Shown here: in pieces, positions 35,443-51,743 of the stretch
Layout: each line of letters starts with the position of its first letter
How positions within the stretch are numbered: the stretch's first letter is position 1
Assembly: GCA_041651035.1 (NCBI GenBank)
Contig: JBAZKC010000001.1
Coordinates: 131,244 to 195,243 of the forward strand
Length of the DNA stretch: 64,000 nt
DNA from: Candidatus Omnitrophota bacterium
GTDB lineage: Bacteria > Omnitrophota > Gorgyraeia > Gygaellales > Profunditerraquicolaceae
Direction of reading: 5' to 3'
The notes under the pieces: model-generated
Seen by the model: the letters and a program-made list of their open reading frames with translations, nothing else
Told to the model about the DNA's origin: nothing
Database searches by the model: none
Translations under genes and position numbers: made by a program

Positions 35443-35814
35443 TCAAGCCGGACCGATATATTTTTCCACCAAAACAGGGAATTGCCTGGTATCTATCGGT
35501 TTTGCGACATAATCGTCTACACCCAGGGCAATGATCTTCTCTTTATCGCCTTTCATAGCCAGGCTCGTTACCACGATCACCTTTATATCTTTAGTCAGGG
35601 GGTCGCTTTTAAGCATTTTTACCGCGGCAAATCCATCTGTCCCGGGCATCTGCATATCTAAAAGGATCAGATCCGGTTTAAGCTCGCGCGCCATGCTTAT
35701 ACCCTTTTCTCCATCCTCTGCCTCCAGGATTTCATATCCGCGGTATTGCAGGATATCCGACATCAATAACCGGTTCTGCTCGCTATCATCCATAATGAGT
35801 ATTTTTTTGGCCAT
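35443..35814 (-). CDS. Stand-alone CheY-like response-regulator receiver domain. The start codon I chose lies inside the longer ORF on the supplied track.
   Basis: MAKKILIMDD...LLDMQMP...DDYVAKP. Confidence 0.85.
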   Translation of the reverse strand: MAKKILIMDDSEQNRLLMSDILQYRGYEILEAEDGEKGISMARELKPDLILLDMQMPGTDGFAAVKMLKSDPLTKDIKVIVVTSLAMKGDKEKIIALGVDDYVAKPIDTRQFPVLVEKYIGPA

Positions 35815-35818
35815 GGCG

Positions 35819-37561
35819 TTATGCTTTAACGGGTATTGTAAATATAAACTTAGAACCCTTGCCGAATTCACTCTCTACCCGGATCTTCCCTCCGTGCAGC
35901 TCAACTAGTTTCTTGGTTAAGGCAAGGCCTAAACCTGTGCCTTCAACAGTCTTAGTATAGATGGATTCGATCTGGCTAAAGGTTTGAAAGAGTTTTGAAA
36001 GGTCTTCGGGCTTTATCCCAATACCACTGTCTTTTACGGAGATCTCTACAAAATCCCCTGTTTCCGGCCCGCCTGCTTCCAGCGCAACCAAAGCGACGCC
36101 TTTGGTTAGTTTCGCGTTTACTTTAACTTCGCCTCCGTCCGGAGTAAACTTCACGGCGTTGCTTAAAAGATTAAACATTATCTGCTTAAGCTTCTTTGGA
36201 TCCGCTGCTATGTTAATATCTGCCTGAGGTTCAACATCTAAAGACAAATTTATCCTGTGCTTAAGAGATTTCTCCTGAAGCAGGGTAAGCGACGGCTCAA
36301 GGATATCTTTTTTTAAAGACAGGTTCTCCGGCTCAAGCTCCATTTTCCCGGCTTCTACTTTGGAAAGATCCAATATATCATTGATCAGTCCTAAAAGATG
36401 CCTGCCGCTGCTATGAATGTTATCCGCGTATTTCTTCTGCTTTTCATTTAACTGGCCAAAAAATTGATCCTGCAGGACCTCGGCAAAACCAATTATGGCA
36501 TTAAGCGGCGTCCTTAATTCATGGGACATGTTAGCCAGGAAATCAGATTTCGCGCGATTAGCGGCATCTGCCTGAAGCTTTGCTTTCTCAAGTTCATGCT
36601 TCTGTTCAAAAAACCGGCTGATTACGCGGATGATATCTCCGAATTCGGTTTTATCTTTTTCCAAGGTAGCCGCGCATTCAGTATTCTCGTTTTTTAAAGC
36701 GCCGGATATTAACTGAAGCGGGGTCTTGACCCACCTGGTCAGTAAAATTATGAAAATAATTAGAAATATCCCCATAAACCCTGTCATTATAAAGAAAAAG
36801 GTTTTATAACCGAGGTTAAAATCCTTAATGAGCCGGGACTCCTTCCAGCCGGTTACTTTAAACGCCGGCTTTGCGTCCGGGCCCATAAGAACCTGGCTGA
36901 ATGTGATTGTTCCTTTTTCCGGATTTGAAACAATGGGGGCTTCTCTCTTTTCTGAAAACGCGCTTACGGCTATATTGCATCCGCATAACTTGGCGATTTC
37001 ATCGATATAACTCTTATCCCAGAGGCGTCCGGCCAGAAGATAGCCTCGGCCGGGAGTCTTTCTCTCCATATCGTTGCTGGGGTAAATGCCGGCGCCGCGG
37101 ATCTCAAGAATACCTTTTGGGGTATTGATATAAAAATGACAGAATGGCCCGTTAGCAAAAAGGCTGCTTATTTTAAGCTTAGGTAAAGGCAGCTCTTTAA
37201 AGCCGGGGACTTCAAGATCATTTACGGAGTAGATAAAGGAACTGTCCAGGCCGTATATCCATATCGCATTCGCGTGGTATGCGGGTAAAGCGGTATCGAT
37301 ATTTTCCGCGGCCCATTTTTTATCTCCGCTGGAAGCGAAATTAGCCATCTCATCCCAATGAGTATAATCGTAGGCTAAGGCATCCAGCGTGCTCCCTTTG
37401 AGTTCAATTATTTTTTCAAAAACCAGATGGATCTGCTTTTCTTCATTAGAGAATAATGTGATCAGCCTTTGCTTCTCAAACGCCCTCTGTAAAAGGACGG
37501 AAGAAACAAACACTACAACGATCGAAAAGAGTAAAAATATTATTTTTGTTTGTACTCTCAT
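35819..37561 (-). CDS. Sensor histidine kinase with periplasmic sensor domain, HisKA and HATPase_c
   Basis: 580 aa. Has an N-terminal TM helix, a second TM helix, the H-box [15 protein letters not shown], and N/G1/G2 boxes. Confidence 0.9.
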
Positions 37562-37591
37562 ATTTTCTGCGCTATCTCATCCATTGCCGCG

Positions 37592-37969
37592 CTATTTGGC
37601 GCCGCCATAGAGGACTTCTTTTATTCTTTGCATAAGCTCTGCCCGGCTGGACGATTTGGAGATAATAAGCCTGCCGGAGACTTTTCCGTGCTGCGCCTTA
37701 ACCTCTTCTTCAGTGATTATACTGGTGAGGTATATTACCGGTATATCTTTGGTCTTATTATTTTCTAATAACTCCTCGGACACCCTGCCGCCGTCTTTCT
37801 TTGGCATCATCACATCAAGAAGTATCAAATCAGGGATATTTTCAATGGCAAGTTTTAAACCATCATCACCGTTAGCGGCGGTCAATACCTCAAATCCCTG
37901 GCTCAATAAAATATCCTTATACAGCTCAAGTTCTTTTTCATTATCATCCACGATCAAGATCTTAGACAT
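37592..37969 (-). CDS. Stand-alone CheY-like response-regulator receiver domain. The start codon I chose lies inside the longer ORF on the supplied track.
   Basis: MSKILIVDD... with GGAGG 7 nt upstream. Confidence 0.85.
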   Translation of the reverse strand: MSKILIVDDNEKELELYKDILLSQGFEVLTAANGDDGLKLAIENIPDLILLDVMMPKKDGGRVSEELLENNKTKDIPVIYLTSIITEEEVKAQHGKVSGRLIISKSSSRAELMQRIKEVLYGGAK

Positions 37970-38043
37970 AGCAATCCTCCTTGCCCACAAGGGCACACCC
38001 GGCAATCCGATAAGCCGGGGTGTAACCACAAGGCCACACCGAC

Positions 38044-38104
38044 GCCCCCCGCCCCCTGCTTAGTACTATATTTTCAGAAAAACTGCCGCAATTTTTAGGG
38101 GGCG
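38044..38104. repeat. Structured intergenic repeat, copy A (divergent). A C-rich arm, a 45-nt AT-rich core and a complementary G-rich arm.
   Basis: ccgccccc...tttcagaaaaactgccgcaattttta...gggggcgg. The arms are reverse complements. It is homologous to copies at 39599-39654 and 41390-41454. Confidence 0.6.
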
Positions 38105-38108
38105 GAAA

Positions 38109-38777
38109 TTAATCTAGCAGTTTCTGAGACAAACGATGCAACTCTGGATTGGCTAAAGCCAAAACCTTCTTTTTTACCGCTCTTGAAAAATATTCTTTCT
38201 CGGTTTTGGTCAATTTTTCCCGCTTAAGCTTCTTTAGAAATAGTTCTTTTTGTTTAGGAGAAAAAACCTGCGATAATGAATATTCAAGGCTCAATTCGTC
38301 TTTTACCGAAAGTAATTCATTTAATTTATTCCGGGCCTGGTTAAAGTAATTATTGAATACAGTCTTCAATCTCTGAGCAGACAATTCGCTTCCGGCAACG
38401 TTAAGCTCTCCATTAGATTTAAGCTTCTCGAGGAATACCATCACTTTTCTTCTTCTCGCTACGGAAAGGGAATAATATAATTTATCGGCCCAAGAAAACT
38501 TTAGATTAAAGAATTTATAAAGTGCTAATGATATTTCCATAAGTGAAAATAAATACGGTTTATCGAAGGGCTTTTTTAAGTACCAATTAACTTTGTCATA
38601 GCTAAATAATCCCTTCTCTGCGCTGTTTGCTAATACTACCGGAAACCCTTCCCAAAGGCGAAGATCACGAGATCTCACCATGTCCGCCAAAGTTAAATTA
38701 GCATCCTTATCTTCTTCGACGCCAAAAAGCGGAAAACCTAACGCATTAACTCTTTTGAGAAGATCGTCATTTTTCAT
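38109..38777 (-). CDS. Hypothetical protein, partner of the upstream nucleotidyltransferase (possible toxin-antitoxin or defense pair)
   Basis: 222 aa. Its start overlaps the NTase stop by 11 nt. Confidence 0.4.
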   Translation of the reverse strand: MKNDDLLKRVNALGFPLFGVEEDKDANLTLADMVRSRDLRLWEGFPVVLANSAEKGLFSYDKVNWYLKKPFDKPYLFSLMEISLALYKFFNLKFSWADKLYYSLSVARRRKVMVFLEKLKSNGELNVAGSELSAQRLKTVFNNYFNQARNKLNELLSVKDELSLEYSLSQVFSPKQKELFLKKLKREKLTKTEKEYFSRAVKKKVLALANPELHRLSQKLLD

Positions 38778-39357
38778 TGATCAGGCCTTCTTTCTTTAGA
38801 ATCTTTAAGAAATGCTCAAAATTCTTATTCACTTTGTCTTCTGAAACATCAAAAGATGCTGTTTCTTTAAAACGCTTCTCTAACTGCTTAAAATCTATGT
38901 CTTTATTTTTATCCCTTACTAAAACAAGGCAATCATCTATATCTATCGCTGTAGCTCTGAATAGCTTACTTATAACAATGTCATAATAATTTAAAACTCC
39001 CAAATAAATTCTATCAAACTCTTTTACAAAAATATGATTTCCTTTTCCCAGTGGCGACTCTAACAATTCTGTAGTATGTACTGCTTTACCTCTGAATAAA
39101 TCGAATATGAAGCCATCTCCCCTCTCCCACCCCCAGCCGCTTGCCGATTTATATCCAAGCTGTTTTAAAGTACTTACTAAATATTCATATTCATCTAAAT
39201 TTGGCACTATTAAGTCTATATCCTTAGTAGATGGTTTCACGCCTAAAAGCGTCAAAGCGGTTCCGCCACAGGCAATCAAATGCACCTTCCTCTTGAGAAA
39301 GGTATCCCAAGCCCTGATTCTATCCAATAGGCCTTGTTTATCTATTCTATATTCCAT
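38767..39357 (-). CDS. Pol-beta-superfamily nucleotidyltransferase-like protein
   Basis: 196 aa with ACGGTALTLLGVKPSTKDIDLIV (the hG[GS]x9-13DxD NTase motif). Confidence 0.6.
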   Translation of the reverse strand: MEYRIDKQGLLDRIRAWDTFLKRKVHLIACGGTALTLLGVKPSTKDIDLIVPNLDEYEYLVSTLKQLGYKSASGWGWERGDGFIFDLFRGKAVHTTELLESPLGKGNHIFVKEFDRIYLGVLNYYDIVISKLFRATAIDIDDCLVLVRDKNKDIDFKQLEKRFKETASFDVSEDKVNKNFEHFLKILKKEGLINEK

Positions 39358-39435
39358 ACAATAACTTGTATATATTCATACAACTCTCTGTATTAAAGCA
39401 TACAATATATTTAGTATTTTGTCAAGACAATCTTC

Positions 39436-39465
39436 GACAACCTAAATGACAACCTAAATGACAAC
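39436..39465. repeat. Tandem 12-nt repeat (gacaacctaaat, about 2.5 copies)
   Basis: Read directly from the sequence. Confidence 0.6.
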
Positions 39466-39521
39466 TAATTTTGGCAAGAAACACTTGGTGGAACCGCGTC
39501 TCTAAGGAAACAGCTTAAATG

Positions 39522-39654
39522 CACCGCGCCCTGGGGGGCGCTCCCACATCTCGCGTCCAGCGCTTCAAAAACTGCTTGGGCGGGGCGCGGCCCCCACCCC
39601 GCGCCCCGCCTAGCGCTATCTTTTCAAAAAACTGGCGAAATTTTTAGGGGGAGG
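39522..39654. repeat. Structured intergenic repeat, copies B1 and B2 in tandem. B2 contains a perfect 12-bp inverted repeat GGCGGGGCGCGG/CCGCGCCCCGCC.
   Basis: B1 is ccgcgccc...agcgcttcaaaaactgcttg...gggcgcgg. B2 is ccccgcgccccgcc-tagcgctatcttttcaaaaaactggcgaaattttta-gggggaggg. Confidence 0.65.
39599..39654. repeat. Structured repeat unit B2. This is an explicit coordinate for the unit already contained in the 39522-39654 feature.
   Basis: See the 39522-39654 feature. Confidence 0.6.
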
Positions 39655-39697
39655 GAAAAAAATAGAAACTTCCTTAAATAGTTAAGAATTTTTTAGA

Positions 39698-41191
39698 TTA
39701 ACTTGAATTACTAATGGCTTTATTCAGGTCATCGATGAAAAGCTGGGCTTCTTGGGCATTCCCTCTTTTCCATCTATTAAGTAATTTCGAGCATCCACTT
39801 CCAAAGTTATCTTTTTTATCCTGAAACCATCTTTTGTGCCCACCACTTTCTGTCACATTAACAAAACCGTTAAAACAAGTATCCTTATAGAATGCCATCT
39901 CTCCTCCCCAAAAGGAATCATCTTCAGGCAATGTTGCTAAAAAGGTATAAAAAATGCTTTCAGGACACTTATCCTCTGGCAGAAACACTACATTTTTTAA
40001 CCTTGCAAACCGAGCATTTGTCCTAGAATCTCCATCCAAAACAAATATAAATCTTTTCAGACATGATAATCTTTTTGATGCCAAGTCAGCTAAAGCCCCA
40101 TTAGAAAGAGTAGCTCCATAAACATCAATAATGCTCTTTAACGATGTAGCATTTAGCAAGCTTCTACACCATAATGCTCCAACTGGGTCTTCACATAAAA
40201 GATTGATTTTCTCAACTGAATGTTTTTCCTTAGTTTCAATCATTATTCTACTCTTTATATAATGGAATTCTGGGTTAAGCTTATTGACAACTTTTCTATT
40301 TCTTATTTCAAGGAAATTTACTTTTACTCCTTCATAATTCTTGTTTAATAGGAAATTTATAATTTCCAATGAATGCGTAGTAAAAACTATTTGGAGACTG
40401 TAAGTTCTCGCGTATTTGTATAATCTTTTTATAAGATTTATTTGAGAACCCGCAAACATAGTGGTATCCAACTCATCGATTAACAAAATTCCCCGATTCG
40501 GTTCTAGTTTCTTGAAAGACATAATCGCAGTTAAGATTTGCCCTAAATTATCTTGCCCAGCTGAGTTACCTAGAGTGCCATAGCTATCAGTTTCTGTTGC
40601 AAAGAAATCTTTATTGGGCGTCTTAGCATGCTGTGGAGAAACATTTTTTTCCAAAGAAACAAAAATTTCGCTTGATTCGTTCTTATAAAAATGGATGTCT
40701 TGGGTACCTAATCCAGACTCTTCAATTAAAATATCTCCTTCTTTTTCTTGGGCTAGAGGAAACAATCGTCTTAAGCCAAGATAAATTACGGGATAATCAA
40801 TTTTTCCTTCTCCCTCTTTTGCACGGATACCAACATCAATCCTAAACCTTTTTTCCGATTTTACATACCTTGACTTGGCTTGTTTATTAAGGACCTCTCC
40901 TTCATCATCTAATTCGGCTTCATATTCATAGTTCTTATCAAATTCATGAGTTGGGCAGAATTTAAATATTTCTGAATACTCAGCTTCATATGGTTTATTA
41001 TCCAAAGTTTTGTGTTTATATTTAACTTCTGATCCTTTTTCTCTAAAACTAAACAAGTGGCCAACTAAACCAAGAATGCTTGACTTACCTGTGCCATTTA
41101 AACCAGATATTACTGTTAAATAGTCACCAAATTCTATACTAACATTCTCCATATGTCTAAAATATTTAACATTTAGCTTTACTATTCTCAT
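39698..41191 (-). CDS. OLD-family ATP-dependent endonuclease (ABC-type ATPase plus C-terminal TOPRIM), GajA-like
   Basis: 497 aa. Has Walker A GLNGTGKSS, Walker B ILLIDELD, H-loop FTTHS, and TOPRIM Glu (LLCEDPVG) and DxD (FVLDGDS). Confidence 0.75.
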   Translation of the reverse strand: MRIVKLNVKYFRHMENVSIEFGDYLTVISGLNGTGKSSILGLVGHLFSFREKGSEVKYKHKTLDNKPYEAEYSEIFKFCPTHEFDKNYEYEAELDDEGEVLNKQAKSRYVKSEKRFRIDVGIRAKEGEGKIDYPVIYLGLRRLFPLAQEKEGDILIEESGLGTQDIHFYKNESSEIFVSLEKNVSPQHAKTPNKDFFATETDSYGTLGNSAGQDNLGQILTAIMSFKKLEPNRGILLIDELDTTMFAGSQINLIKRLYKYARTYSLQIVFTTHSLEIINFLLNKNYEGVKVNFLEIRNRKVVNKLNPEFHYIKSRIMIETKEKHSVEKINLLCEDPVGALWCRSLLNATSLKSIIDVYGATLSNGALADLASKRLSCLKRFIFVLDGDSRTNARFARLKNVVFLPEDKCPESIFYTFLATLPEDDSFWGGEMAFYKDTCFNGFVNVTESGGHKRWFQDKKDNFGSGCSKLLNRWKRGNAQEAQLFIDDLNKAISNSS

Positions 41192-41337
41192 TCCCTCGGC
41201 CCCCTATGAGATGTAAGTTGGTTTTCGATAAGCTTGCGATACTTACAAGTTGTATCTTCTAATAATTATTCTTTCATACTTATGCTAATTCTTTTACGTC
41301 ACTGCTTTTATCACAATAAAAACAAGCGTAAATATTG

Positions 41338-41354
41338 GGACGTTTCTATTTTTC
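41338..41354. repeat. 17-bp direct repeat GGGACGTTTCTATTTTT, left copy. The right copy is at 48013-48029.
   Basis: Exact 17-mer present twice, bracketing the four-gene cassette at 41500-47856. Confidence 0.6.
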
Positions 41355-41389
41355 AAGATTAGAAGAAACCTTTACTTATTTATCCGTAG

Positions 41390-41454
41390 CCCCCTCCCCG
41401 CGCCCCGCCTTGCGCTATCTTTTCAAAAAGCTGGCGAAATTTTTAGGGGAGGGG
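41390..41454. repeat. Structured intergenic repeat, copy C, with arms cccctcccc/ggggagggg
   Basis: ccccctccccgcgccccgcc-ttgcgctatcttttcaaaaagctggcgaaattttta-ggggagggg. The arm sequence differs from copy B but stays complementary, which is covariation. Confidence 0.65.
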
Positions 41455-41499
41455 AATAAATCTAACCCTTTACTCAGAATTAATACGGCACGCCCAATT

Positions 41500-44289
41500 T
41501 CAACCTGTGCTATGCTTGCTACCGTAAGAACATAAACGATACTGAAAACAATCCTTACAAACTTCTCTGTTTTTTGTTCTTATAAATGATTGTTTTCTAA
41601 TAGTATCAGCACTTTCTTTTATCTTTTTCTCCATCATTTCAAGATGGCTTTCGCTTAATGGTATTGGGGGTTTCTGAGTATTAGTTTCTAAATCATATAT
41701 CTGGATGTAATCGGCTTCTTGTCCTGTAAGCTCCTTATGACCCATGGCATATAAATTAAGTTGATCGATGGTAATTTGCCTCTTCTGCACATCATCACTT
41801 GACTTAAATTCTATAATAGTAGTTTCATATTTACCTTCGTAATTCTTCTTTTTTATCAAATCGATTCTCCCGCTGACAAAAATACCATCATCAAGATGCA
41901 GTTGAATATCTTGTTCTACAAATTCAACTTCTTTTAACGATTTTTTATTATTATCAAAATATTGAACCACCTTATTCTCAACTAATTCTTTCATTTCAAG
42001 CAATATTGAGGACTTGCCTAAATAAGGAAAATAGGATTGTTGCTTTGCAATATCCCTTACAAGTGGTAAGCTAAGAACCTCGCCTAACATGCTTCTTTTA
42101 TGAATTTCCATTAGACTATTATGTAATGATTTTCCGAATCCCATTCGTTGGTCCAAAGGATAACAAAAACCATACATGGAAACGAGTTTGAAACGGTATG
42201 GACATTCAAAGAAATCTTTCAAAATACTAAAGTTTAGAGATATAGTGACTATGCTCTGTTTGGGTTTTGGTTCAAGTTTAGTTTTTGTTTTAAAATCTGG
42301 GATATTTGTAACAATTACATTTGAAGCTGAAATCTCAGAAACAAATATAGAAGGTTTTCTATATAGCTGATTATTTTGATCAGGCGCTCTTGAAATAAAC
42401 AAATATTTTTGAGCTCTTGTGATTGCTACATAGAATAATCTACGCTCATCTTCAATATTTCCTTCATATCGATCCTGGTTTTTAATTAACGTTCTATCTA
42501 AGAAATGCCATTCACTCAATCCACCATGTTTTTTTGTTGGGAGATAATTTTTATTTAGTCCTGGTATAAATACAACAGGAAATTCAAGCCCCTTTGCTTG
42601 ATGAATAGTCATTATTTGAACTGCTCGTGGAGTCTTATATGGATTATTTAACCATCCTTCTGGGTAATAGTCGTTTGCTGCATATGTTATGAAATCTAAA
42701 AAATATTTTAAGTGGATTTCTGGTAGAGAGCTATTGAAATTTATCGATTCAAAATCATTTATTACTTGGCTAAATTTGCCAAGGTTAAACATTATTATTT
42801 CTCCTCTAAGAGGATCCTCAAATGTTTCTTCATTTATTTTGGCAATTTCAATAAAACTCCAGTAAACATCTTGCAAACTATATGCCCAAATCGGTTTTCT
42901 TTTTTTATCTATGTGATTCTCGGGGAATTTTCTTGTTAAATTTTTTATAGCGATATTAAGATTTTCAAATTTAATTTTATTTTTAGGTATATCTTGCCAA
43001 AGCTTGATTAGTTCTTCTTTTTTTATAGAATGATTTAAATACTGAAAAATGCCCACTGCTGCTTTTGCTTCGTTAACTTCAAATAATTCGTTAACACCTG
43101 CTGTAATATAAGGAATATTATATTTATCAAGAATTTCAACAATCCTATAGGATTTATTCCATGTTCGCAGAAGGATAGCAAAATCGGAGTAATCAAGCCC
43201 ACGCTTCTCTTCTCCTTCTTCTTTAAATGATACTCCGAGCAATTTCTTTATCATATCCGCAATAAAATTATTTTCTTCTTCAATATTTACAAACTCATTG
43301 TATAGTATGTCTTCTTTTTTAATGAAATTTTGCTTTTCGGCCGAGATCATTTTCTTGGGGATTCGATTATTTTTAAAGATAAGAGTTTCTGCAAGACTTG
43401 TAATTCCCTTGGAACTTCTAAAATTTTCATTTAAAATCACTTCTTTGGCAGGTCTATAGTTTTTTAGAAAATCTTTTATATATCGATTATTACTACCTCT
43501 CCACTGATAAATATTTTGATCGTCATCACCTACAACGGTAACGATTGGTTTGCTTGTTAGGTAAAGTTGCTTTATTAATTCTTCTTGGATTGGATTAACA
43601 TCTTGATATTCATCTACGATCAGGTACTTTAAGTCTTGCTTTATCTTGTTATACAACCCCTTTTTCTCATGTAAACTATTTAAGGCTTCTGTCATTATCA
43701 TAGTGAAATCAAAATAGCAGTTATCTCTTAAAACTTTTTCATATTTCTCTTTTGCTTTTGAAATATTTTCAGGTAATTTACGATTACAATCTGACTCTCT
43801 GATAATATTCATTATTTGAATGAATCTTCCTGTATCAACAAACTTTCTCATGCTGAAGTTTCTATCATTTATTTTAGTAATGTCGGTCATACCGATGTGA
43901 TAATAATTTTTATCTACGAATAGACGCAATTTTATCTCATCTAAAACAGAGAAATTTTGGAATTTGTACTCATTGTTTTGCAAGGCGTTAAGACACCAAC
44001 CGTGAATTGTGCCAATATACATGTCTGCAATACCTCTTAACTCATTCAGATCAGGATTTTCTTTAAGAAAATTCAAGATTTTATTTTTTAATTCTGCCGC
44101 TGCTCTATCAGTATATGTAAACGCAATGATGTTTTTCGGTTCTATTTTTAAGCCATTCTTGGGATTTAATAAAAATGTCACCTTTCCAGCAATAGTACTT
44201 GTCTTTCCCGAACCTGCGCAGGCGATTATTCTTAAATTTTGCTCATTGGCTTTTATAGCCGTTTTTTGTTCATCTGTAAAAGGTATCAT
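41500..44289 (-). CDS. UvrD/PcrA-like SF1 helicase fused to a C-terminal Cas4/AddB-type PD-(D/E)xK nuclease domain with a Cys4 cluster
   Basis: 929 aa. Has motif I IIACAGSGKTSTI and motif Ia AFTYTDRAAAEL. The C-terminus carries CPYRFKL...CKDCFQYRLC and IIEFKSSDD (ExK). Its start overlaps the upstream MTase by 4 nt. Confidence 0.75.
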   Translation of the reverse strand: MIPFTDEQKTAIKANEQNLRIIACAGSGKTSTIAGKVTFLLNPKNGLKIEPKNIIAFTYTDRAAAELKNKILNFLKENPDLNELRGIADMYIGTIHGWCLNALQNNEYKFQNFSVLDEIKLRLFVDKNYYHIGMTDITKINDRNFSMRKFVDTGRFIQIMNIIRESDCNRKLPENISKAKEKYEKVLRDNCYFDFTMIMTEALNSLHEKKGLYNKIKQDLKYLIVDEYQDVNPIQEELIKQLYLTSKPIVTVVGDDDQNIYQWRGSNNRYIKDFLKNYRPAKEVILNENFRSSKGITSLAETLIFKNNRIPKKMISAEKQNFIKKEDILYNEFVNIEEENNFIADMIKKLLGVSFKEEGEEKRGLDYSDFAILLRTWNKSYRIVEILDKYNIPYITAGVNELFEVNEAKAAVGIFQYLNHSIKKEELIKLWQDIPKNKIKFENLNIAIKNLTRKFPENHIDKKRKPIWAYSLQDVYWSFIEIAKINEETFEDPLRGEIIMFNLGKFSQVINDFESINFNSSLPEIHLKYFLDFITYAANDYYPEGWLNNPYKTPRAVQIMTIHQAKGLEFPVVFIPGLNKNYLPTKKHGGLSEWHFLDRTLIKNQDRYEGNIEDERRLFYVAITRAQKYLFISRAPDQNNQLYRKPSIFVSEISASNVIVTNIPDFKTKTKLEPKPKQSIVTISLNFSILKDFFECPYRFKLVSMYGFCYPLDQRMGFGKSLHNSLMEIHKRSMLGEVLSLPLVRDIAKQQSYFPYLGKSSILLEMKELVENKVVQYFDNNKKSLKEVEFVEQDIQLHLDDGIFVSGRIDLIKKKNYEGKYETTIIEFKSSDDVQKRQITIDQLNLYAMGHKELTGQEADYIQIYDLETNTQKPPIPLSESHLEMMEKKIKESADTIRKQSFIRTKNREVCKDCFQYRLCSYGSKHSTG

Positions 44290-45542
44290 GGATTAATTTT
44301 TTGCATTACAACTATATATTCGATATTCATCAAATTTCTTTTTTCCCCTGACACCCCTGAAGGGCTATTCTTTCTTGGTAACCTTTTGTTTGATATTTTT
44401 CTCTCAAATGTTTCAATATGTTTAAATCCATTATCTTTAAAGAATTCTCTTGTGATTTGATGTGTTTGTAACGTAACTCCTTTGACGCATCTATTGCTTA
44501 CAACATAGCAAGCATAACCTTTTTTCCTTATAATCTTTGAAACATTCGCAATTGACTTTTCATAATCTTCGTAAAATGCTGACACATCCAAAGCTCTATT
44601 TTTATCTATTTTCCCAATTTTTATTAAATCCTTATTTAAAATTTTGCATTTAAATTCTTTTATCTTTTTAGCTCTTTTGCCTCCCATTAATTCATAATCA
44701 AGCTTATTTGCATCTTGAAATCCTAACCATTGATTAGCTAATCTAGAGAATTGTCCATACGCAACAGTTGTTTGCGAATCTCCATATGGAGGAGATGTAA
44801 TCACAATCCCTACCTTCTGCTTTATGATTTGATTAGGATCTTGTTTTACTGTGTTAAAATCATGTATTTTACTTGTCGCGCCATTCTTTTTTTCATCACA
44901 AAATTTTAAAAGTCCTTCCCTGTTTTTGGCTACTATTTTTTCAAAGGTTGTAAAGACGTCTGGCTTAAAATGTCTAAGTTGCTTTGTATCCATTCTGTAT
45001 AGCTTGAACTCATTTTTCCTTGTACGTGAGCATTCTCTTATTGTTTGACTAAATGCGACTTTAAAAAAATTACTTACCGACGCATACGGAATTTTATCAA
45101 TATATTCTTTCAGAATCGATAGGTCGACAATCACGGACTTTGAAAACCAAAAAGTAATATTAGGGAATTTAGCGGGTACCACAAAATTACGTTTTTTAAA
45201 ACCAAAACGAAATGGGAAAAGATAAGAGTAAAATTCTTTTATATGTGAATTTAAAGTTTTAGTTTTGATCGAGTTAGTTTTTGCCGTTGCAATCAACCTT
45301 GCAAGTGGATTTATATCAGTACCTAATGCGTTAAGACCATTAATATTTGCCTCAACTAGAGATGTTCCCGTACCACAATAAGGGTCGAAAAGAGTAGATT
45401 TATTAATACCGTATTTCTTTATTAGTTGATCTGCAACATGAGGAACCATCATTGCTGGATAAGTATGGAAACAGTGAGTAGAATATTTAGTATCAACTTC
45501 GATAAAATCCCAATCATATTTTTTTACCATGTGCTTATCCAA
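44286..45542 (-). CDS. DNA methyltransferase, N4-cytosine or N6-adenine
   Basis: 418 aa with motif I FDPYCGTGTS and motif IV ITSPPYG. Confidence 0.75.
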   Translation of the reverse strand: MDKHMVKKYDWDFIEVDTKYSTHCFHTYPAMMVPHVADQLIKKYGINKSTLFDPYCGTGTSLVEANINGLNALGTDINPLARLIATAKTNSIKTKTLNSHIKEFYSYLFPFRFGFKKRNFVVPAKFPNITFWFSKSVIVDLSILKEYIDKIPYASVSNFFKVAFSQTIRECSRTRKNEFKLYRMDTKQLRHFKPDVFTTFEKIVAKNREGLLKFCDEKKNGATSKIHDFNTVKQDPNQIIKQKVGIVITSPPYGDSQTTVAYGQFSRLANQWLGFQDANKLDYELMGGKRAKKIKEFKCKILNKDLIKIGKIDKNRALDVSAFYEDYEKSIANVSKIIRKKGYACYVVSNRCVKGVTLQTHQITREFFKDNGFKHIETFERKISNKRLPRKNSPSGVSGEKRNLMNIEYIVVMQKINP

Positions 45543-45719
45543 ACAGCTTAAACATCATTGATTCAATCGGCCTAGAATTAAAATCCTTAAGATTATGAGG
45601 ACATTCCCAAAAGAGACACCCCTTATAAAAAATTGAATCACAATCTATTTATCTGTAACTAATTATAAACGCCTAGCCTGTCACCCCGGGGAACGTCACC
45701 GAAACCATTCTTGATTAGT

Positions 45720-46811
45720 TTATTTTCCAGATTTGGTTCGGTTATCTTGTTTGCACAACATTTGGCAATTCTTTGCAACAGTCTTTCCACCTTCATGCCA
45801 GGGTTTTATATGATCAGCTTCCATTTCTTCTATCTCAAAGTGTTTCTTGCATTTTACGCATTTACCTTTTTGCCTTTCGTATGCTTCTCTTTTTTGTTTA
45901 TCTGTAAATGCTCTAATATTCAAGAATTTCTCATTTCGGGTTAAAACATACGGATAAATTCCGGTTTTGCTTGTTACTTCATCATCCAGCATTAACTCTT
46001 TGATTTCAGTTTCCAATTTATTAGAATTCAGTCTCTTCTCTTTGAACTCGCTATACAGCTCTCCCCATTGCACACTACTCATTTCTCGGCGATAATTTGT
46101 AAAAGTCTTTCGCACCCATTCAATCACATCTTGAAAGTACTGCCACAATTCTTCAGCATTTTTGTTATGCTGATGCTTGGCCATATAATCTTCTATTTTG
46201 CCTTTGTTAATCCACGAAAGCACAGTTTCTAAATACTCCTGTCGAATTGGTGAACCACTAACTAATTGTCCGCCGTCGTTTGCTAACAAATACGCCGCAC
46301 AATTTGATTTACTGAATTTTAATTTCGCGTCGCTCAACCACGGCCCGGTATAAACTGCGTTACGGATTTCCTGGTCGTTAACCTTCTCTCCGTAAGTGTT
46401 AATAATCCTAAACCAGTCTAGCCGTTCCTTATCCGCACCTTCGCAGAAATAAATCATTAGTTCATAATCCAAAATTTTATCTTGTTCCTCTTTGGTTAGA
46501 TTATGAAAAAAGCGGTCGTTCAGCGAAAAATCGCCATAAACATATTGCCCTATACTAATAGTGCGCTGCTGGCCGTCCAGCATTTCGTAGCCACCATCTT
46601 CTCTGATCATCCAATACATCACATTCAGCGGAAAGCTGTTTTTGATAGTTTCGATTACGGCATTACGTTGCTTTTCCTTGTACACAAATTCACGCTGATA
46701 TTTTGGACGAATATCAAGTTTACCATCATAAGCCACCACGCCTTCTTCGGCGCTATCTTTGTAGCCCGCCATCACTCTACGAATTTTAATTTTGTGTAGT
46801 TCAATTTTCAT
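45720..46811 (-). CDS. DUF262 (ParB/GmrS-like NTPase) fused to an HNH endonuclease, a GmrSD-like restriction protein
   Basis: 363 aa with the DGQQRT motif. The C-terminal HNH is EADHIKPWHEGGKTVAKNCQMLCKQDN. Confidence 0.75.
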   Translation of the reverse strand: MKIELHKIKIRRVMAGYKDSAEEGVVAYDGKLDIRPKYQREFVYKEKQRNAVIETIKNSFPLNVMYWMIREDGGYEMLDGQQRTISIGQYVYGDFSLNDRFFHNLTKEEQDKILDYELMIYFCEGADKERLDWFRIINTYGEKVNDQEIRNAVYTGPWLSDAKLKFSKSNCAAYLLANDGGQLVSGSPIRQEYLETVLSWINKGKIEDYMAKHQHNKNAEELWQYFQDVIEWVRKTFTNYRREMSSVQWGELYSEFKEKRLNSNKLETEIKELMLDDEVTSKTGIYPYVLTRNEKFLNIRAFTDKQKREAYERQKGKCVKCKKHFEIEEMEADHIKPWHEGGKTVAKNCQMLCKQDNRTKSGK

Positions 46812-46812
46812 A

Positions 46813-47856
46813 TTATTTTTTCACCTTCTTGTTTTTTATAATAACTCGAGCGTAAGGAACATCGACAATTCCATTTGTAATCATATATAAATCGCCATCA
46901 ACTGCACCTCTTTTTTGAACTTCTTTTCTGTATTTTTTATGTTCCTCCTTATACGGTTTAACTCCAATCTCCATCCCTGAATTAGATATACCTAAACCAA
47001 TAACCTCAAATTGGTTCGGATTATATTTATCAAGGAAAGTAACTGGTACACCAATCGCACCATCATAGTCGCAAGGTATGTCGGTATATTTGTCTACGTT
47101 AATTGCATCATAATTGTAGTACTTTGGATATTCTTTACGTGAATATTTTTTATAAAGAGTGATATCTTGTTTATGCTTCTCAACTACAAGATTTGTAAAC
47201 CAACACGAAGTTGACACACGCACAATTTTCTTGCCATTTTCATCAATATGATGAAAATGCTCCCAATCGTCTGGTACAATAAAAAACATCCCTACATTAA
47301 AATTCGTGTAGCCAGTACGCAGTTTGTTGTCCTTAATTAACTTAAAAATCTCTTTATAGGTTAGTGAATTTGTATTGCCTATAATCAAAAACCCTTTTTT
47401 GTACTTCACGAGCTGTGCAACATATTCACGAAACAGCGAAAATGGTGGATTAGTCACAACAATATCCGCTTCTTTAAGTAGTTCAATACACTCCACACTA
47501 CGAAAATCGCCCGTTCCTATCATCTCAGTTATAAACTCACTTGGATCAGGCGTGCGATTACCATTTTTATCGCCTGTGTATTCTAATTTATAAGGTGGTT
47601 CTTGGGAAAATAAATTTGCTTCTTTATAATGTGTGGCTATCAATTTTTTTAGCCCCAAATGTTCAAAATTCATACTAAAATATTTGACGAAATTACTTTC
47701 TCTGGGATCATCGCAGTTGCAAAAAACTACTTTGCCGCGGAATTGCTCTTTATAATATTTCAGTTCATTTTCAATATCGCCAAGCTGAGTATAAAACTCG
47801 TCTTTCTTTTCTTGGCTTGCTTTGTGTAAGTTTTTATTTAAGAATTTTGTTTCCAT
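46813..47856 (-). CDS. N6-adenine DNA methyltransferase (NPPF class)
   Basis: 347 aa with motif IV VVTNPPF. Ends 2 nt before the DUF262-HNH start. Confidence 0.7.
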   Translation of the reverse strand: METKFLNKNLHKASQEKKDEFYTQLGDIENELKYYKEQFRGKVVFCNCDDPRESNFVKYFSMNFEHLGLKKLIATHYKEANLFSQEPPYKLEYTGDKNGNRTPDPSEFITEMIGTGDFRSVECIELLKEADIVVTNPPFSLFREYVAQLVKYKKGFLIIGNTNSLTYKEIFKLIKDNKLRTGYTNFNVGMFFIVPDDWEHFHHIDENGKKIVRVSTSCWFTNLVVEKHKQDITLYKKYSRKEYPKYYNYDAINVDKYTDIPCDYDGAIGVPVTFLDKYNPNQFEVIGLGISNSGMEIGVKPYKEEHKKYRKEVQKRGAVDGDLYMITNGIVDVPYARVIIKNKKVKK

Positions 47857-48012
47857 ATTTTATTTGGATTCAACAGGCCTATTTTAAAATGCAACTTTTT
47901 AGGATTTATTCCTAATGGCCTAATGTTATATCCTTCCCACTAATTCATCTAAACTAATCCCCAAAACATCTGCCAATTTCTACTGAGACCAACCAGATCT
48001 CAAAATAAATAA

Positions 48013-48057
48013 GGGACGTTTCTATTTTTGGCGGTTAATGAAAAATAGCAACGTCCC
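48013..48057. repeat. 17-bp stem hairpin gggacgtttctattttt-ggcggttaatg-aaaaatagcaacgtccc. The left arm is the right copy of the 17-bp direct repeat.
   Basis: Read directly from the sequence, with one mismatch in the stem. Confidence 0.55.
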
Positions 48058-48081
48058 CTCCTTTTCTGATTGTACTAATTA

Positions 48082-48175
48082 ATTACTCCTTGCGTAAACG
48101 CTTGTAATCTTCTTGCTCCGCGTTCAAAGCGCCAGTTGGATTTCTTTACTATTACTCCTTGCGTAAACGCTTGTA
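48082..48175. repeat. Two perfect 25-nt direct repeats (attactccttgcgtaaacgcttgta) spaced 69 nt apart, next to the tRNA-His 3' end
   Basis: Copies at 48082-48106 and 48151-48175. Confidence 0.6.
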
Positions 48176-48252
48176 GATTTCATCCGCTTCGCTACTGAAA
48201 TCTACTGCGCACGCTTCGGAGTGAAATTTTTTGTAAAGCAAAAAATTTCAAG

Positions 48253-48329
48253 GGTGGCTGACGGGGCTCGAACCCGCGACCTCTAGAGCCACAGTCTAGT
48301 GCTCTAACCAGTTGAGCTACAGCCACCAG
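48253..48329 (-). tRNA. tRNA-His (anticodon GUG)
   Basis: The minus strand reads gGUGGCUGUAGCUCAACUGGUUAGAGCACUAGACUGUGGCUCUAGAGGUCGCGGGUUCGAGCCCCGUCAGCCACC. The extra 5' G pairs with the discriminator C. Has GTG in the anticodon loop and T-loop GGUUCGAGUCC. CCA is not encoded. Confidence 0.9.
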
Positions 48330-49546: not shown

Positions 49547-49598
49547 AGTTTAATTATGGTGCGCCTGGGCCGAATCGAACGGCCAACCGTCTGCTTAG

Positions 49599-50251
49599 CA
49601 TACCGCACCGAATTTCTTCGGCCAAAATGTTGCGGTCTGGACTATGTCTTCACCATTTCAGGTGTGTGGCGTATAGTCTCTGAGGACTCTCGTTATATAT
49701 CGCGATAATCATCTGCCCATTTAACATACTTAGTCTGATTATTGCCTGGCTTATTGAAACGTATAGCCTTAGGACAATCAGTAGAATTCGGGACGTACAA
49801 AACTGTTTCCTTATTCGGACAATAGATTGCATAATAATCAAAGTCTCGTTCTTTATAGGCATGTATATGTGTACCGTGTTTATCTGCCCAACTCGTCCTA
49901 AACTTAACTTCGATTATTCCATTACTAAGTAACGTGGTGTATTTCACTTGTAATTTAACCGCTTTGCCGTCCTTCAAAATAGCTACAATGTCATAAGGCT
50001 GGTGTTCCGACAGCGGGATGCATGGAACATATCCCCTCTGAACTAAGTCAGCGATAACCTTTGCTACCCCGATATCAGCCTTGACTTTCGTATGATGCAA
50101 CATTCACCTCCTTTCCATATTATTTTGGGCGTTAAGACTACCTGCGTTAAAACGGTTGCCTGCAAGTTATCCGTGCTTACGCATGAGGATTTTCTTGCAT
50201 ATAGCCACATCCTCTCTATGCGTTTTAGTTTCCGCATAGAGGCTCCTACTG
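49599..50251 (-). mobile_element. Group I intron inserted after tRNA position 34
   Basis: R-like element CAGAGACUAUA (49672-49682) and S-like element AAGACAUAGUCC (49639-49650) can form P7. Terminal G. Contains an ORF in the same orientation. Confidence 0.75.
49693..50103 (-). CDS. Intron-encoded PD-(D/E)xK-like nuclease (Hjc/I-Ssp6803I-like), putative homing endonuclease
   Basis: 136 aa with ...SEHQPYDIVAILKDGKAVKLQVKY... (E...D...(E/Q)xK pattern). GGAGG lies upstream of the ATG. Confidence 0.55.
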   Translation of the reverse strand: MLHHTKVKADIGVAKVIADLVQRGYVPCIPLSEHQPYDIVAILKDGKAVKLQVKYTTLLSNGIIEVKFRTSWADKHGTHIHAYKERDFDYYAIYCPNKETVLYVPNSTDCPKAIRFNKPGNNQTKYVKWADDYRDI

Positions 50252-50433
50252 AAGGCAGATGCTCTATCCATTTGAGCTACAGGCGCATGTAAATCCTGTA
50301 AAAACTACTTGCGTAAAAAGCCTTCTATCGCCGCAAAACAGATCCCGCAGCGCACTGTAGATTCTACCACAAATTATAAATAAAGAAAACTAGAAAGATT
50401 GGGCTTGCGGACGCGAATTGAAGAATATTTGGC

Positions 50434-50961
50434 TTAATACTCGACCCCTTTTCTTGCCCGTATACCTGAATCGTAAGGGTGCTTTATCTTCTTTATATGG
50501 CTTACCAGGCTTGCTTTCCCGATTATCTTTTTCACCGGTCCTCTTCCTGTTAATACTAATTCCAAATCCTTCGGCTTAGAACTTAAGATACTCAAAACCT
50601 CTTTTTCTACCAGGAATCCCTCGCGCAGCGAAACAAGTATTTCATCCAGTATGAGCAGATCGTATCTGTTTTTTTTATAGGCTTTTTTAATAAACTCCAG
50701 GCCTTTTAGGCATTCCACCCGCACCTGGCTCTTAGTTACATCTTTATAAAAATGCGGATGTTTTTCGGCAAAACCGAATATATCCACCCCCAGCTTCTTT
50801 AAAGACTTATGTTCTCCATATCCCCATTTTTCAGGGTCTTTATGAAAATAGATGTAGCAGACTTTTAAATCATGCGCCCTTGCCCTGCAGGCAAGGCCTA
50901 CTGCGGTGGTAGTTTTGCCTTTGCCGTCTCCGGTATAAATATGGATCAAGCCGTTTTTCAT
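50434..50961 (-). CDS. cobA: Cob(I)alamin/cob(I)yrinic acid a,c-diamide adenosyltransferase (CobA/CobO/BtuR)
   Basis: 175 aa with P-loop YTGDGKGKTTTAVG and LLILDE. Confidence 0.88.
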   Translation of the reverse strand: MKNGLIHIYTGDGKGKTTTAVGLACRARAHDLKVCYIYFHKDPEKWGYGEHKSLKKLGVDIFGFAEKHPHFYKDVTKSQVRVECLKGLEFIKKAYKKNRYDLLILDEILVSLREGFLVEKEVLSILSSKPKDLELVLTGRGPVKKIIGKASLVSHIKKIKHPYDSGIRARKGVEY

Positions 50962-51743
50962 TTTCTTCCCTCCTGCGGGACCAGGAATATATATGGCCTC
51001 CTGGATATCGGATTTTCCTTTACCAGAACAACCGTTTTATAAACATCCTCAATGACCTGATAAGTCAGGACATCTCCGGGAGCCCCGACCTTATGTATCC
51101 TGCCGTTATTAAGCAGGATCAATTTATCGCAATACTCGCCGGCTAAATTCAAATCGTGCAAAACCGTGATCACCGTAAGCCCGAATTCTTTATTTAATTT
51201 TTTTATAAGATCCAGTACCGCCACTTGATGAGTTATGTCCAGATGCGCGGTGGGCTCATCTAAAAGAAGCAGCCGGGGTTCCTGGCAGAGAGCGCGCGCG
51301 ATAAGGACTAATTGTTTTTCCCCGCCGCTTATTTCTTCTACGGGCCGCCCCCTTAACTTCAAGGTACCGGTTAAGGCCATCGCTCTTTCGGCAATCTCTA
51401 AGTCCTGCTTGCTCTCTAAAAATTGTAATCTTTGAAAATGGGGTATTCTTCCCAAAAGGACGAATTCTTCTGTTGTCAGAGAGTTTACAGGGGGATTTTG
51501 AGATACTACAGCCATTTTACGGGCCAGTTCTTTTTGGTTGATCCGCGGTATATCTTTCCCCTCAAAAAGGATTACGCCTTTCTTTAGTTTAAGCACACCG
51601 CTTATCGCCCGAAGCAGGGTTGTCTTACCTGAACCATTGGGACCTACTATTCCTATAAACTCTCCAGCTGCTACTTTGAAATTAATATCCTGAAGAAGGA
51701 ATCTTGAATCATAGCCACAAGTTAGGTCTCTTATCTGTAACAT
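50958..51743 (-). CDS. btuD: ABC transporter ATP-binding protein, FecE/BtuD type. The start codon I chose lies inside the longer ORF on the supplied track.
   Basis: Walker A GPNGSGKTT, signature SGGEKQ, Walker B LLLLDEPT. Start chosen at MLQIRDL. Confidence 0.8.
   Translation of the reverse strand: MLQIRDLTCGYDSRFLLQDINFKVAAGEFIGIVGPNGSGKTTLLRAISGVLKLKKGVILFEGKDIPRINQKELARKMAVVSQNPPVNSLTTEEFVLLGRIPHFQRLQFLESKQDLEIAERAMALTGTLKLRGRPVEEISGGEKQLVLIARALCQEPRLLLLDEPTAHLDITHQVAVLDLIKKLNKEFGLTVITVLHDLNLAGEYCDKLILLNNGRIHKVGAPGDVLTYQVIEDVYKTVVLVKENPISRRPYIFLVPQEGRK

Follow-up and report, generated by a model that had tools for sequence, protein, structure and literature searches.

A probable composite defence array without a recombinase at a tRNA-His hotspot of Omnitrophota, with a junction repeat as the proposed substrate of cassette exchange

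How do defence islands without an integrase gain and swap their contents? The question has been raised explicitly for the core defence hotspots of Pseudomonas, and it is posed again by a 64,000-nt stretch of DNA from a Candidatus Omnitrophota bacterium (GenBank assembly GCA_041651035.1, contig JBAZKC010000001.1, positions 131,244 to 195,243 of the forward strand), hereafter called the window. At about 38.0-48.25 kb of the window, an AT-rich block of seven genes, all on the minus strand, adjoins the 3′ end of a tRNA-His gene. Defence islands beside tRNA genes are routine, and to our knowledge nothing is known about mobile DNA in this phylum. The island itself is an ordinary kind of object, with genes of known families; its unusual part is a repeat at the cassette junctions, together with evidence of cassette exchange. 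We consider it likely that the island is a composite defence array lacking a recombinase, assembled at a phylum-wide tRNA-His hotspot from at least four independently acquired modules (A to D, from the tRNA outwards), with the repeat as the proposed exchange substrate.

Evidence for exchange comes from module C, a single gene for a 497-aa protein of the OLD family (39698-41191). A protein 99% identical to it is encoded on a European Nucleotide Archive contig (L097; fetched loci are referred to by such numbers), where it lies behind a Type III restriction-modification (R-M) system, DruA, NurA and a HerA-like ATPase. Positions 9711-11604 of L097 match window positions 41443-39549 with 97.9% identity over 1896 nt. 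By segment, identity is 98.9% in the OLD coding sequence, 95.9% in the upstream promoter-like region, 91-93% in the two flanking repeats and 50-61% outside. The homology starts inside the core of the upstream repeat copy, copy 3, at 41443 (TAAAA/ATTTCG, the slash marking the start). At the level of DNA comparison, this demonstrates that module C is a cassette with its own history, independent of the rest of the island. Because the homology of the L097 OLD cassette (~98% identical) starts inside the upstream repeat, we propose that cassettes are exchanged at the repeats. The ~40-nt repeat found at the ends of modules B, C and D would then be the substrate where cassettes are added or exchanged, through either an unlinked site-specific recombinase or short-homology recombination between repeats. 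Module B, a methyltransferase gene and a helicase-nuclease gene, likewise has a relative elsewhere: positions 8736-12764 of L014 match window positions 45553-41526 with 86% identity over 4029 nt, the match comprises the two module B genes only, and the flanks are unrelated. This alignment demonstrates, in the same comparative sense, that module B is a unit with its own history, independent of the rest of the island. Taken as a whole, the island appears to consist of at least four modules with separate histories, the independence of B and C being established by these two comparisons.

Repeat searches and nhmmer found exactly three copies of the junction repeat in the window, all of them in the island; the remaining 54 kb have none. 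Copy 1 (38022-38122) overlaps or lies just past the stop of the 222-aa gene of module D, at the distal island edge adjoining a response regulator gene. Copy 2 (39570-39667), which consists of the core and a 13-bp GC hairpin, lies 31 nt after the OLD stop, and copy 3 (41391-41470) lies ~30-110 nt after the helicase stop. The copies follow modules D, C and B, respectively, each overlapping the preceding stop or lying within ~30 nt after it, and no copy was found in the gaps at 45.5-45.7 kb (between modules A and B) and 47.9-48.25 kb (next to the tRNA). An original prediction, made from the letters of this stretch alone, had the modules separated by copies of a structured repeat. The separation holds after B, C and D and fails between A and B and at the tRNA, while the structure was not borne out: RNAalifold gave zero consensus base pairs on either strand for 17 copies from nine contigs, and single copies fold no better than shuffled controls (z -0.5 to -2). 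The conserved part of the repeat is a linear sequence, not a structure. Its core of ~40 nt reads, in gene sense, CCCCCTAAAAATT[G/T]CG[G/C]CAGTTTTTTGAAAAGAT, or in longer form CCCCCTAAAAATT[G/T]CG[G/C]CAGTTTTTT(T)GAAAA(A)GAT; two linked variable positions set two subtypes, and a GC-rich hairpin follows the core in a subset of copies as an optional appendage.

Beyond the window, metagenome contigs were scanned with the exact pattern of the copy-1 subtype only (copies 2 and 3 have one fewer A), a census that is an undercount; it returned six more repeat-bearing contigs from one sample series. Besides the pattern-found L008-L012, nhmmer located the repeat in ~1.18 Mb of fetched loci only in the segments downstream of tRNA-His in L013 and L075, and L097, fetched later through its OLD homologue, holds two more copies. 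In viral contigs, neither type of repeat core was present, nor was any relative of the OLD protein, and no Rfam family covers the repeat, long versions included. Between genomes whose DUF748 orthologues share 43-52% identity and whose cargo is non-homologous, the repeat DNA is 87-92% identical (window copy 2 and L075 21031-21153, 87.5% over 128 nt), compared with 85-86% for tRNA-His itself. Over all the islands of distant Omnitrophota where it turns up beside other cargo, its identity ranges over 87-98%. The repeat is always antisense to the preceding gene and lies 4-115 nt downstream of its stop. An arrangement of co-oriented cassettes with a repeat behind each one is seen in the window, L009, L013 and L075, and the repeats occupy the distal part in all three repeat-bearing tRNA-His islands (window, L013 and L075). 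Single copies lie at the border between accessory and housekeeping genes, the latter being pyruvate kinase in L010 and BirA in L011.

Two identities for the repeat were tried and found little support. Terminal C-run/G-run arms pair in copies 1 and 3, not in copy 2, and are absent from many copies; with arms inconsistent among copies and no target-site duplication at the copy ends, the repeat does not match a miniature inverted-repeat transposable element (MITE). A recombinase core made of inverted arms around a variable spacer fits poorly, the supposed spacer being mostly conserved and carrying the two linked variable positions.

The setting of the island was established from the DUF748 gene on the far side of the tRNA, whose protein has homologues annotated as Candidatus Omnitrophota, the nearest 66% identical. 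A genome scan with an alignment of DUF748 orthologues recovered 80 Omnitrophota loci, where a single-protein query had found none. The order tRNA-Pro, tRNA-Arg, DUF748, (histidine kinase, response regulator), tRNA-His is kept almost everywhere (~70 loci). Open reading frames (ORFs) were clustered over 10 kb downstream of tRNA-His in the 46 loci having at least 1.5 kb there, and nearly all were singletons; the sole frequent family, present in 15 of the 46, is a large serine recombinase (Resolvase, Recombinase and Zn_ribbon_recom domains in L004). The 3′ flank of tRNA-His is a phylum-wide variable hotspot, its variability being seen among distant relatives only (nearest flank protein at most 66% identical). 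L013 shares the PDDEXK_5/DUF748/tRNA-His flank of the window, yet its cargo is AbiE-like, Fic and unknown. L075 carries two Dam-class methylases, an AlwI-like endonuclease and a DndB-like gene, after which come a repeat, an OLD-like ATPase, a repeat, two small genes and a repeat. The cargo proteins of both loci are non-homologous to those of the window, and no relative carries the same gene block at this place; the synteny comparison suggested with the original prediction came out more strongly in its favour than expected. Its central claim, of a horizontally acquired defence island with tRNA-His as target, is supported by the conserved gene order, the genome-specific downstream DNA and the serine recombinase in 15 of 46 loci. 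Response regulator and histidine kinase genes downstream of tRNA-His in L094, L043 and L068 are 26-38% identical to those of the window, which is the level of paralogues; the distal flank is not conserved across the phylum, and only one flank of the hotspot is "core." Roughly half of the metagenome-assembled genome (MAG) contigs with DUF748/tRNA-His (L017-L096) break within 2 kb after tRNA-His, which is consistent with assembly or binning failing at a variable region of atypical composition; islands at this site are therefore under-sampled in MAGs.

The serine recombinase found in relatives is itself of some complexity. In seven of the 15 loci, a gene of ~475 aa is bracketed by inverted repeats of 31-156 nt (91-100% identity) within the first ~1.7 kb after tRNA-His (L004 12750-14372; L041, L050, L081, L084, L040 and L088). 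The proximal inverted-repeat copy begins 5 nt inside the tRNA-His 3′ end, and the gene is flipped in L088. Rather than a plain island integrase, this looks like an invertible segment with a recombinase of its own, placed upstream of the variable defence cargo. The recombinase is missing from L013, which shares with L004 tRNA-His and a further 45 nt of the inverted repeat (L013 3912-3961), including, at 100% identity, the last 14 codons of the L004 recombinase; this stretch is what remains of a lost recombinase segment, a scar within an island where the junction repeat occurs as well. The window has no scar of this kind.

Within the window, the composition of the island sets it apart. Mean GC is 0.342 in 38.0-48.0 kb vs 0.444 elsewhere (500-nt windows; Mann-Whitney p=1e-11), and in 1-kb windows the island forms the single GC trough of the 64 kb (0.30-0.40 at 38-48 kb, 0.39-0.51 elsewhere). 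GC at third codon positions (GC3) is 0.24-0.39 in the seven island genes vs 0.44-0.49 in the flanking response regulator, histidine kinase and DUF748 genes. The originally predicted drop between ~38.0 and 48.25 kb was thus found as described. The distal step, far from the tRNA, is abrupt at ~38100. On the other side, the prediction that the island reaches 48252 stands in so far as the island adjoins the tRNA-His 3′ end and the syntenic L013 ceases to resemble the window in DNA exactly at 48252, but GC is normal over the last ~200 nt (~48050-48251; 200-nt windows) and the AT-rich part starts at ~48000-48060. Because this last stretch has normal GC and holds a post-tRNA hairpin like that of relatives, the true edge of the foreign DNA is probably near 48000-48060. 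The tRNA-His(GTG) gene (48252-48326, minus strand; ARAGORN, Rfam tRNA 68.7 bits) has its 3′ end, at 48252, toward the island; its terminus reads ...CCACCC/T, and the full CCA is not encoded. Sequence, repeat search and GC windows delimit, from the tRNA to the first island gene, a non-coding spacer (47857-48251, minus strand), which holds an AT hairpin directly after the tRNA (48222-48251), a probable tRNA terminator with similar counterparts in relatives.

The island genes were annotated with Pfam, PADLOC and NCBIfam, and the result bears out the original prediction that they are defence-type; each module is predicted to act in defence. The proposed identities of the OLD-family protein, the UvrD-Cas4-type protein, the two methyltransferases and the DUF262-HNH protein were upheld by Pfam and PADLOC, that of the OLD protein also by alignment and Foldseek. 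Module A, next to the tRNA, starts with a gene for an EcoRI-family N6-adenine DNA methyltransferase of 347 aa (46813-47856; Pfam EcoRI_methylase 3.6e-125, full length; PADLOC MTase_II 1.7e-112). After a 1-nt gap follows the gene for a 363-aa protein with DUF262 (GmrSD_N/ParB-like) and HNH endonuclease domains (45720-46811; GmrSD_N 5e-15, HNH 1.2e-11), which matches PADLOC REase_II PDLC03418 over its full length (2.7e-129) and has no PDB relative by sequence. Its GC3 is 0.39 vs 0.24-0.30 in the neighbouring genes. Module A has the adjacent methyltransferase and endonuclease genes by which type II R-M systems are recognized, and the DUF262-HNH protein is predicted to be the restriction partner of the methylase: in a type II-like manner, methylation would shield the host's own DNA, leaving incoming DNA that is unmodified to be cut by the nuclease. 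Avoidance of AATT-core palindromes was not seen in the 64-kb window (GAATTC, 26 observed vs 25.8 expected), a result that is uninformative for a recent acquisition.

Module B begins with a DNA methyltransferase of the N6_N4/UPF0020 type (44286-45542, 418 aa; identified by Pfam and PADLOC MTase_II PDLC03322, 6e-116), whose stop overlaps by 4 nt the start of the next gene, an arrangement of translational coupling. The latter encodes, by Pfam, a superfamily 1 (SF1) UvrD-like helicase with a C-terminal PD-(D/E)XK/Cas4-like nuclease (41500-44289, 929 aa; UvrD-helicase 3.5e-51, UvrD_C 7e-40, PDDEXK_1 1.3e-14, Cas_Cas4 6.6e-5), with cysteines at the C-terminus and a RecB/AddA-like layout. More than 100 full-length homologues exist, most of them from Bacteroidota and 54-69% identical. 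Three neighbourhoods were examined (L014, L015 and L016, namely an 85% relative, Dyadobacter fermentans and another 5-Mb genome); in each, a methylase of the same type (412-417 aa) lies immediately upstream of the helicase, and none has an adjacent OLD gene. A defence role for fusions of UvrD and Cas4 beside methylases has been predicted before (Hudaiberdiev et al., 2017, PMC5704561), and module B resembles these fusions in having SF1 UvrD and a pfam12705 Cas4-like nuclease in one polypeptide with an adjoining DNA methylase. The contexts described there were Type III Mod/Res or Dcm(+Vsr), whereas module B is a compact two-gene unit with a single, translationally coupled N6_N4/UPF0020-type methylase. 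By analogy with R-M, methylation would mark self and the helicase-nuclease would unwind and degrade unmarked DNA. A sub-threshold Rfam match to n00280, a Clostridioides difficile small RNA described as "included into helicase gene," lies inside the helicase gene (42375-42477, minus strand; 39 bits vs a gathering score of 65); it is most likely due to conservation of the helicase coding sequence, not to an RNA.

Module C encodes an ABC ATPase joined to a TOPRIM nuclease (Pfam AAA_15/AAA_21; PADLOC ATPase-Toprim_I-B 2e-21). In an alignment with 39 homologues, E334, D335 and D386 are invariant, D388 is near-invariant, and the Walker A motif reads GTGKS. An AlphaFold2 (AF2) model with a pLDDT of 88.8 found as its top full-length Foldseek matches in the PDB, at E~1e-12, GajA (8SM3), the OLD of Thermus scotoductus (TsOLD, 6P74) and the OLD of retron-Eco8; TM-scores are low (0.33), owing to differing domain orientation, and identity to the solved OLDs is only 13-16%. 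The gene encodes an OLD-family nuclease with the ABC ATPase and TOPRIM parts of the family. The adjacency of OLD and UvrD-like helicase genes recalls Gabija, the Class 2 OLD system, and this resemblance extends to PADLOC GajB profiles that match the helicase (down to 3.8e-58), GajA profiles that match the ATPase N-terminus (2e-12) and GajA as the top structural match of the OLD protein. The GajA matches, however, span residues 1-78 only, and the helicase has a nuclease domain outside the GajB profiles (382-725 positions). The helicase is coupled to and co-conserved with the methylase, not the OLD gene, in the three neighbourhoods mentioned, and OLD cassettes without a UvrD helicase occur in L097 and, as 66%-identical homologues, in L098-L100. 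Because the L097 cassette has no helicase, the gene order is reversed (helicase first) and a 308-nt gap, holding the junction repeat and a promoter-like block, separates the two genes, we do not regard them as a Gabija pair; that identity was rejected on gene order, spacing and co-conservation and is very unlikely. The OLD gene is a stand-alone, Class-1-like cassette in its behaviour (classes as in PMC10568477). Like the Class 1 proteins P2 Old and Thermus scotoductus OLD, it is a single-gene ABC-ATPase plus TOPRIM of ~500 aa with E...DxD metal-binding residues (PMC10568477), and, like them, it moves as a stand-alone cassette. Class 1 OLD is described as not being near other defence genes (PMC10568477), whereas module C sits in a defence island beside a UvrD-type helicase; a definition by context would wrongly place it in Class 2.

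Module D was originally predicted to be a nucleotidyltransferase (NTase) pair, and half of this claim survives. Its first gene (38767-39357, minus strand) encodes a 196-aa NTase of the DUF6036 family (Pfam 7.7e-8, 32.7 bits vs a cut-off of 23.6). The second (38109-38777, minus strand), which overlaps the first by 11 nt, encodes a 222-aa protein, the presumed NTase partner, with no match in Pfam, NCBIfam, PADLOC or the PDB, profile searches of Pfam and the PDB included. It belongs to a conserved family of ~220 aa (373 related clusters at E<=1e-3) in which R40 is invariant and E43, F45 and P46 are near-invariant (motif R..EGFP), with a conserved C-terminal motif LTKTE.EYFSR. The protein is predicted to be all-helical; its single-sequence AF2 model is of low confidence (pLDDT 45) and unusable for a fold search. 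The module seems to resemble a toxin-antitoxin or abortive-infection pair; for an AbiE or MNT-HEPN pairing in particular, the NTase gives only a weak match to PADLOC AbiEii (0.004) and its partner has no recognisable domain. Sequence and repeat search delimit a region upstream of the module (39397-39530, minus strand) that contains a shared block, TAAGGAAACAGCTTAAATGCACCGCGCC, at 39498-39530, 12-nt direct repeats GACAACCTAAAT present 2.5 times at 39433-39474, and a promoter-like site, TTGACA-17-TATGCT, at 39425-39397. An equivalent of these blocks lies upstream of an unrelated NTase/HEPN pair in L009, and the region may have a regulatory function.

Similar blocks recur around other cassettes. 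Longer versions of the junction repeat share further blocks with one another, and before NTase genes they also include the direct-repeat "operator" and the TTGACA-17-TATGCT site. A different block, motif A, lies ~145 nt upstream of the OLD gene (41335-41356, minus strand), reading TTGAAAAATAGAAACGTCCCAATATTTA in gene sense, with a promoter-like TTGAAA-16-TATTTA. Motif A also occurs, as GGGACGTTTCTATTTTT, in a 17-bp inverted pair with a T-rich run behind it; this pair comes ~200 nt after tRNA-His in the window (48013-48029 and 48039-48057) and ~460 nt after it in L033 (14495-14533). Single copies, reading TTGAAAAATAGAAACGTCCC..TATTTA, stand 0-155 nt upstream of cassette genes (L010 3588-3609, L011 4523-4539, L097 9799-9815, and also upstream of genes in L009), and a promoter function for motif A is suggested by this sequence. 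A 5′ untranslated region (UTR) like the cspA thermoregulator (Rfam 50 bits, gathering score 78) was seen in L009 (8442-8855) and L012 (1808-2221), where in L012 it directly follows a junction repeat; a cold-shock gene seems to be among the cassettes of these arrays.

If the island was assembled from modules, by what agent did they arrive? The predicted absence of an integrase or transposase was confirmed: library scans of the island ORFs, ten flanking ORFs and twenty further window ORFs gave no recombinase or transposase, and tblastn of the relatives' serine recombinases against the window gave nothing better than E=0.7. No partial copy of tRNA-His was found in the window (<=3 mismatches), by short blastn within 16 kb or in the relatives, in a search that would miss serine-recombinase sites with a 2-nt core. 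By the classical description of tRNA islands, the locus has the atypical composition, the position at a tRNA 3′ end and the content that varies among relatives, and lacks an integrase at one end and flanking att repeats containing part of the tRNA. One could still suppose a single insertion event, in which a classical tRNA-targeting element entered by means of its serine or tyrosine recombinase and subsequently lost that gene, with the repeats incidental. This would account for the island adjoining the tRNA-His 3′ end, for the large serine recombinase at that position in 15 of the 46 relatives and for the 45-nt scar retained in L013, and integrase decay in tRNA-proximal islands has been documented for tycheposons (bioRxiv 10.1101/2020.12.28.424599). 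We nevertheless think a single origin quite unlikely: the histories of modules B and C are distinct, as are their closest relatives, GC3 varies from 0.24 to 0.39 between modules, the far end has neither a partial tRNA copy nor another direct repeat, and the window holds no recombinase remnant. The tRNA-proximal block without repeats (module A, perhaps B) could have come in on its own by way of the tRNA site. Co-oriented cassettes, each with a ~60-130-nt repeat behind it and with no integrase nearby, bring to mind an integron-type cassette array, or a cluster of attC sites without an integrase (CALIN). Yet no repeat contains an R''/R' core pair (RYYYAAC...GTTRRRY), the window's sole pair lying inside the OLD coding sequence; the repeat conserves primary sequence, whereas attC sites conserve structure; the cassettes have promoter-like blocks and multi-gene operons; and no IntI-like gene occurs in the scanned window ORFs or the repeat-bearing contigs. 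The attC reading was rejected for want of core motifs and conserved structure, and we hold it to be extremely improbable.

Alternatively, the repeat could have no part in assembling the array and be purely regulatory or selfish (a terminator with a promoter, a regulator site or a small MITE), the cassettes having moved otherwise, for example by recombination in flanking genes. Its place between genes in fixed orientation fits this, as do the strong GC hairpin of many copies, one of which (39576-39613, in copy 2) is flagged by a terminator scan, the short terminal inverted C-run/G-run arms of some copies and the longer versions that run into promoter- or operator-like blocks common to cassettes with unrelated genes. 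Against it, the 17 copies have no conserved secondary structure and single copies fold no better than shuffles; neither the window's 54 kb of core genes nor ~1 Mb of core-flank DNA from relatives contains the repeat; hosts very distant from one another have it in near-identical form; the homology breakpoint falls inside the core; and the copy ends show no target-site duplication. We give this explanation some weight while judging it on balance doubtful. The composite-array reading, which we prefer, has several points to set against it. No recombinase able to act on the repeat was found in the scanned ORFs of the window, L008-L013, L075 and L097. There is one clean cassette swap only, an all-vs-all DNA comparison of the repeat-bearing contigs having given no second. 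A simple site-specific model predicts both junctions of a swap at the same point, whereas the downstream homology here extends ~95 nt beyond the equivalent core position; this offset could be similarity between repeat copies. No repeat separates modules A and B, and module B occurs elsewhere without one. The repeat could also be a regulatory unit that travels with cassettes, given the GC hairpin and promoter-like blocks of its long versions. With flank proteins at most 66% identical, there is no close relative for an empty-site comparison. No target-site avoidance is visible in the window, and defence activity is predicted from sequence.

Among described systems, the closest analogue is the core defence hotspot (cDHS) of Pseudomonas aeruginosa, an integrase-less locus beside a tRNA or tmRNA (Johnson et al., 2023, PMC10250203). 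Like cDHS1/2 (PMC10250203) and the tRNA-linked hotspots of E. coli (Hochhauser et al., 2023, PMC10121019), the Omnitrophota locus has a fixed position with conserved core genes that include a tRNA, a defence content that differs from genome to genome and a low GC. Of the cDHS sites, 29-47% are without a detectable mobility gene, and in the model proposed for them the inserted DNA brings new target sites (PMC10250203). In contrast to the cDHS, variation here extends across a phylum of uncultured bacteria, not within a species, and the cassettes are set off by a conserved ~40-nt repeat, a feature not described for cDHS. In E. coli, unlike here, most occupants of the hotspots are recognisable mobile elements (PMC10121019). 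Integron arrays and CALINs share with the Omnitrophota arrays co-oriented cassettes that end in a repeated site, unrelated cargo and an integrase that is not necessarily adjacent; they differ in that attC R/L core motifs and a conserved hairpin are missing here, IntI was not found, and the cassettes have their own promoter-like blocks, include operons and stand next to a tRNA rather than an attI/intI platform. Prochlorococcus tycheposons (Hackl et al., bioRxiv 10.1101/2020.12.28.424599) are also islands beside tRNA genes in streamlined genomes of uncultured type, where successive insertions push older cargo inward and tyrosine or large serine recombinases are present or decayed. Partial tRNA repeats and integrase fragments such as theirs are absent from the window, and the junction repeat is unrelated to the tRNA.

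Other features of the window lie outside the modules. The spacer that separates the island from tRNA-His contains a pair of exact 25-nt direct repeats, ATTACTCCTTGCGTAAACGCTTGTA, 69 nt apart (48082-48106 and 48151-48175), with no match in any fetched locus; on the minus strand each encodes a tail ...YKRLRKE-stop, one of them closing a 29-aa ORF (48152-48241), and the two may represent either small peptide genes or the end of a gene in duplicate. At the distal side, the island is bordered by a cluster of response regulator, CHASE4 histidine kinase and response regulator genes (35443-37969). Its nearest members, identified by Pfam, are a response regulator (37592-37969, minus strand; GC3 0.49, normal GC) and, after it, the CHASE4 histidine kinase (35819-37561). 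In relatives the histidine kinase and response regulator pair has the opposite order and is placed between DUF748 and tRNA-His instead. A second DUF748/AsmA-like gene lies at 29871-30818, 18 kb from the first. Upstream of the DUF748 gene at the tRNA, a PDDEXK_5 (PF11645) gene (49693-50103) encodes a small PD-(D/E)XK protein. Its region (49560-50287) has 85.6% DNA identity to L013 1694-2418, whereas the adjoining DUF748 gene has only ~70%, and tRNA-Arg(TCT), found at this position in most Omnitrophota, is missing from both the window and L013; the PDDEXK_5 gene may be mobile or recently exchanged. Between the PDDEXK_5/DUF748 genes and tRNA-Pro (59062-59139) sit ~9 kb of cobalamin-related and ABC-transport genes (50434-59062: CobO, FecCD, a periplasmic binding protein, CobQ and a CobT-like protein), while in other Omnitrophota tRNA-Pro is ~0.1-1.5 kb (occasionally ~3 kb) upstream of DUF748. 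Because its GC is host-like, this block is a rearrangement or an old insertion.

For Omnitrophota, the significance of the island lies in one cassette caught in two neighbourhoods, with its breakpoint inside an element that marks cassette ends across distant members of the phylum. The methylase and UvrD/Cas4 helicase-nuclease pair, widespread in Bacteroidota, is moreover a candidate two-gene restriction-like system. A more speculative extension, which we think unlikely, is that the repeat core is the recombination site of an undescribed cassette-capture system, in which an unlinked recombinase would exchange defence and toxin-antitoxin cassettes. Were this true, arrays would be built next to tRNA-His and at a few other loci by a functional analogue of integron attC/CALIN arrays, working through an unrelated site set by sequence and not by structure. 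If the repeat is a recombination substrate, the question of how integrase-less islands swap their contents would become directly testable, and the repeat would serve as a sequence tag by which Omnitrophota metagenomes can be mined for new defence cassettes.

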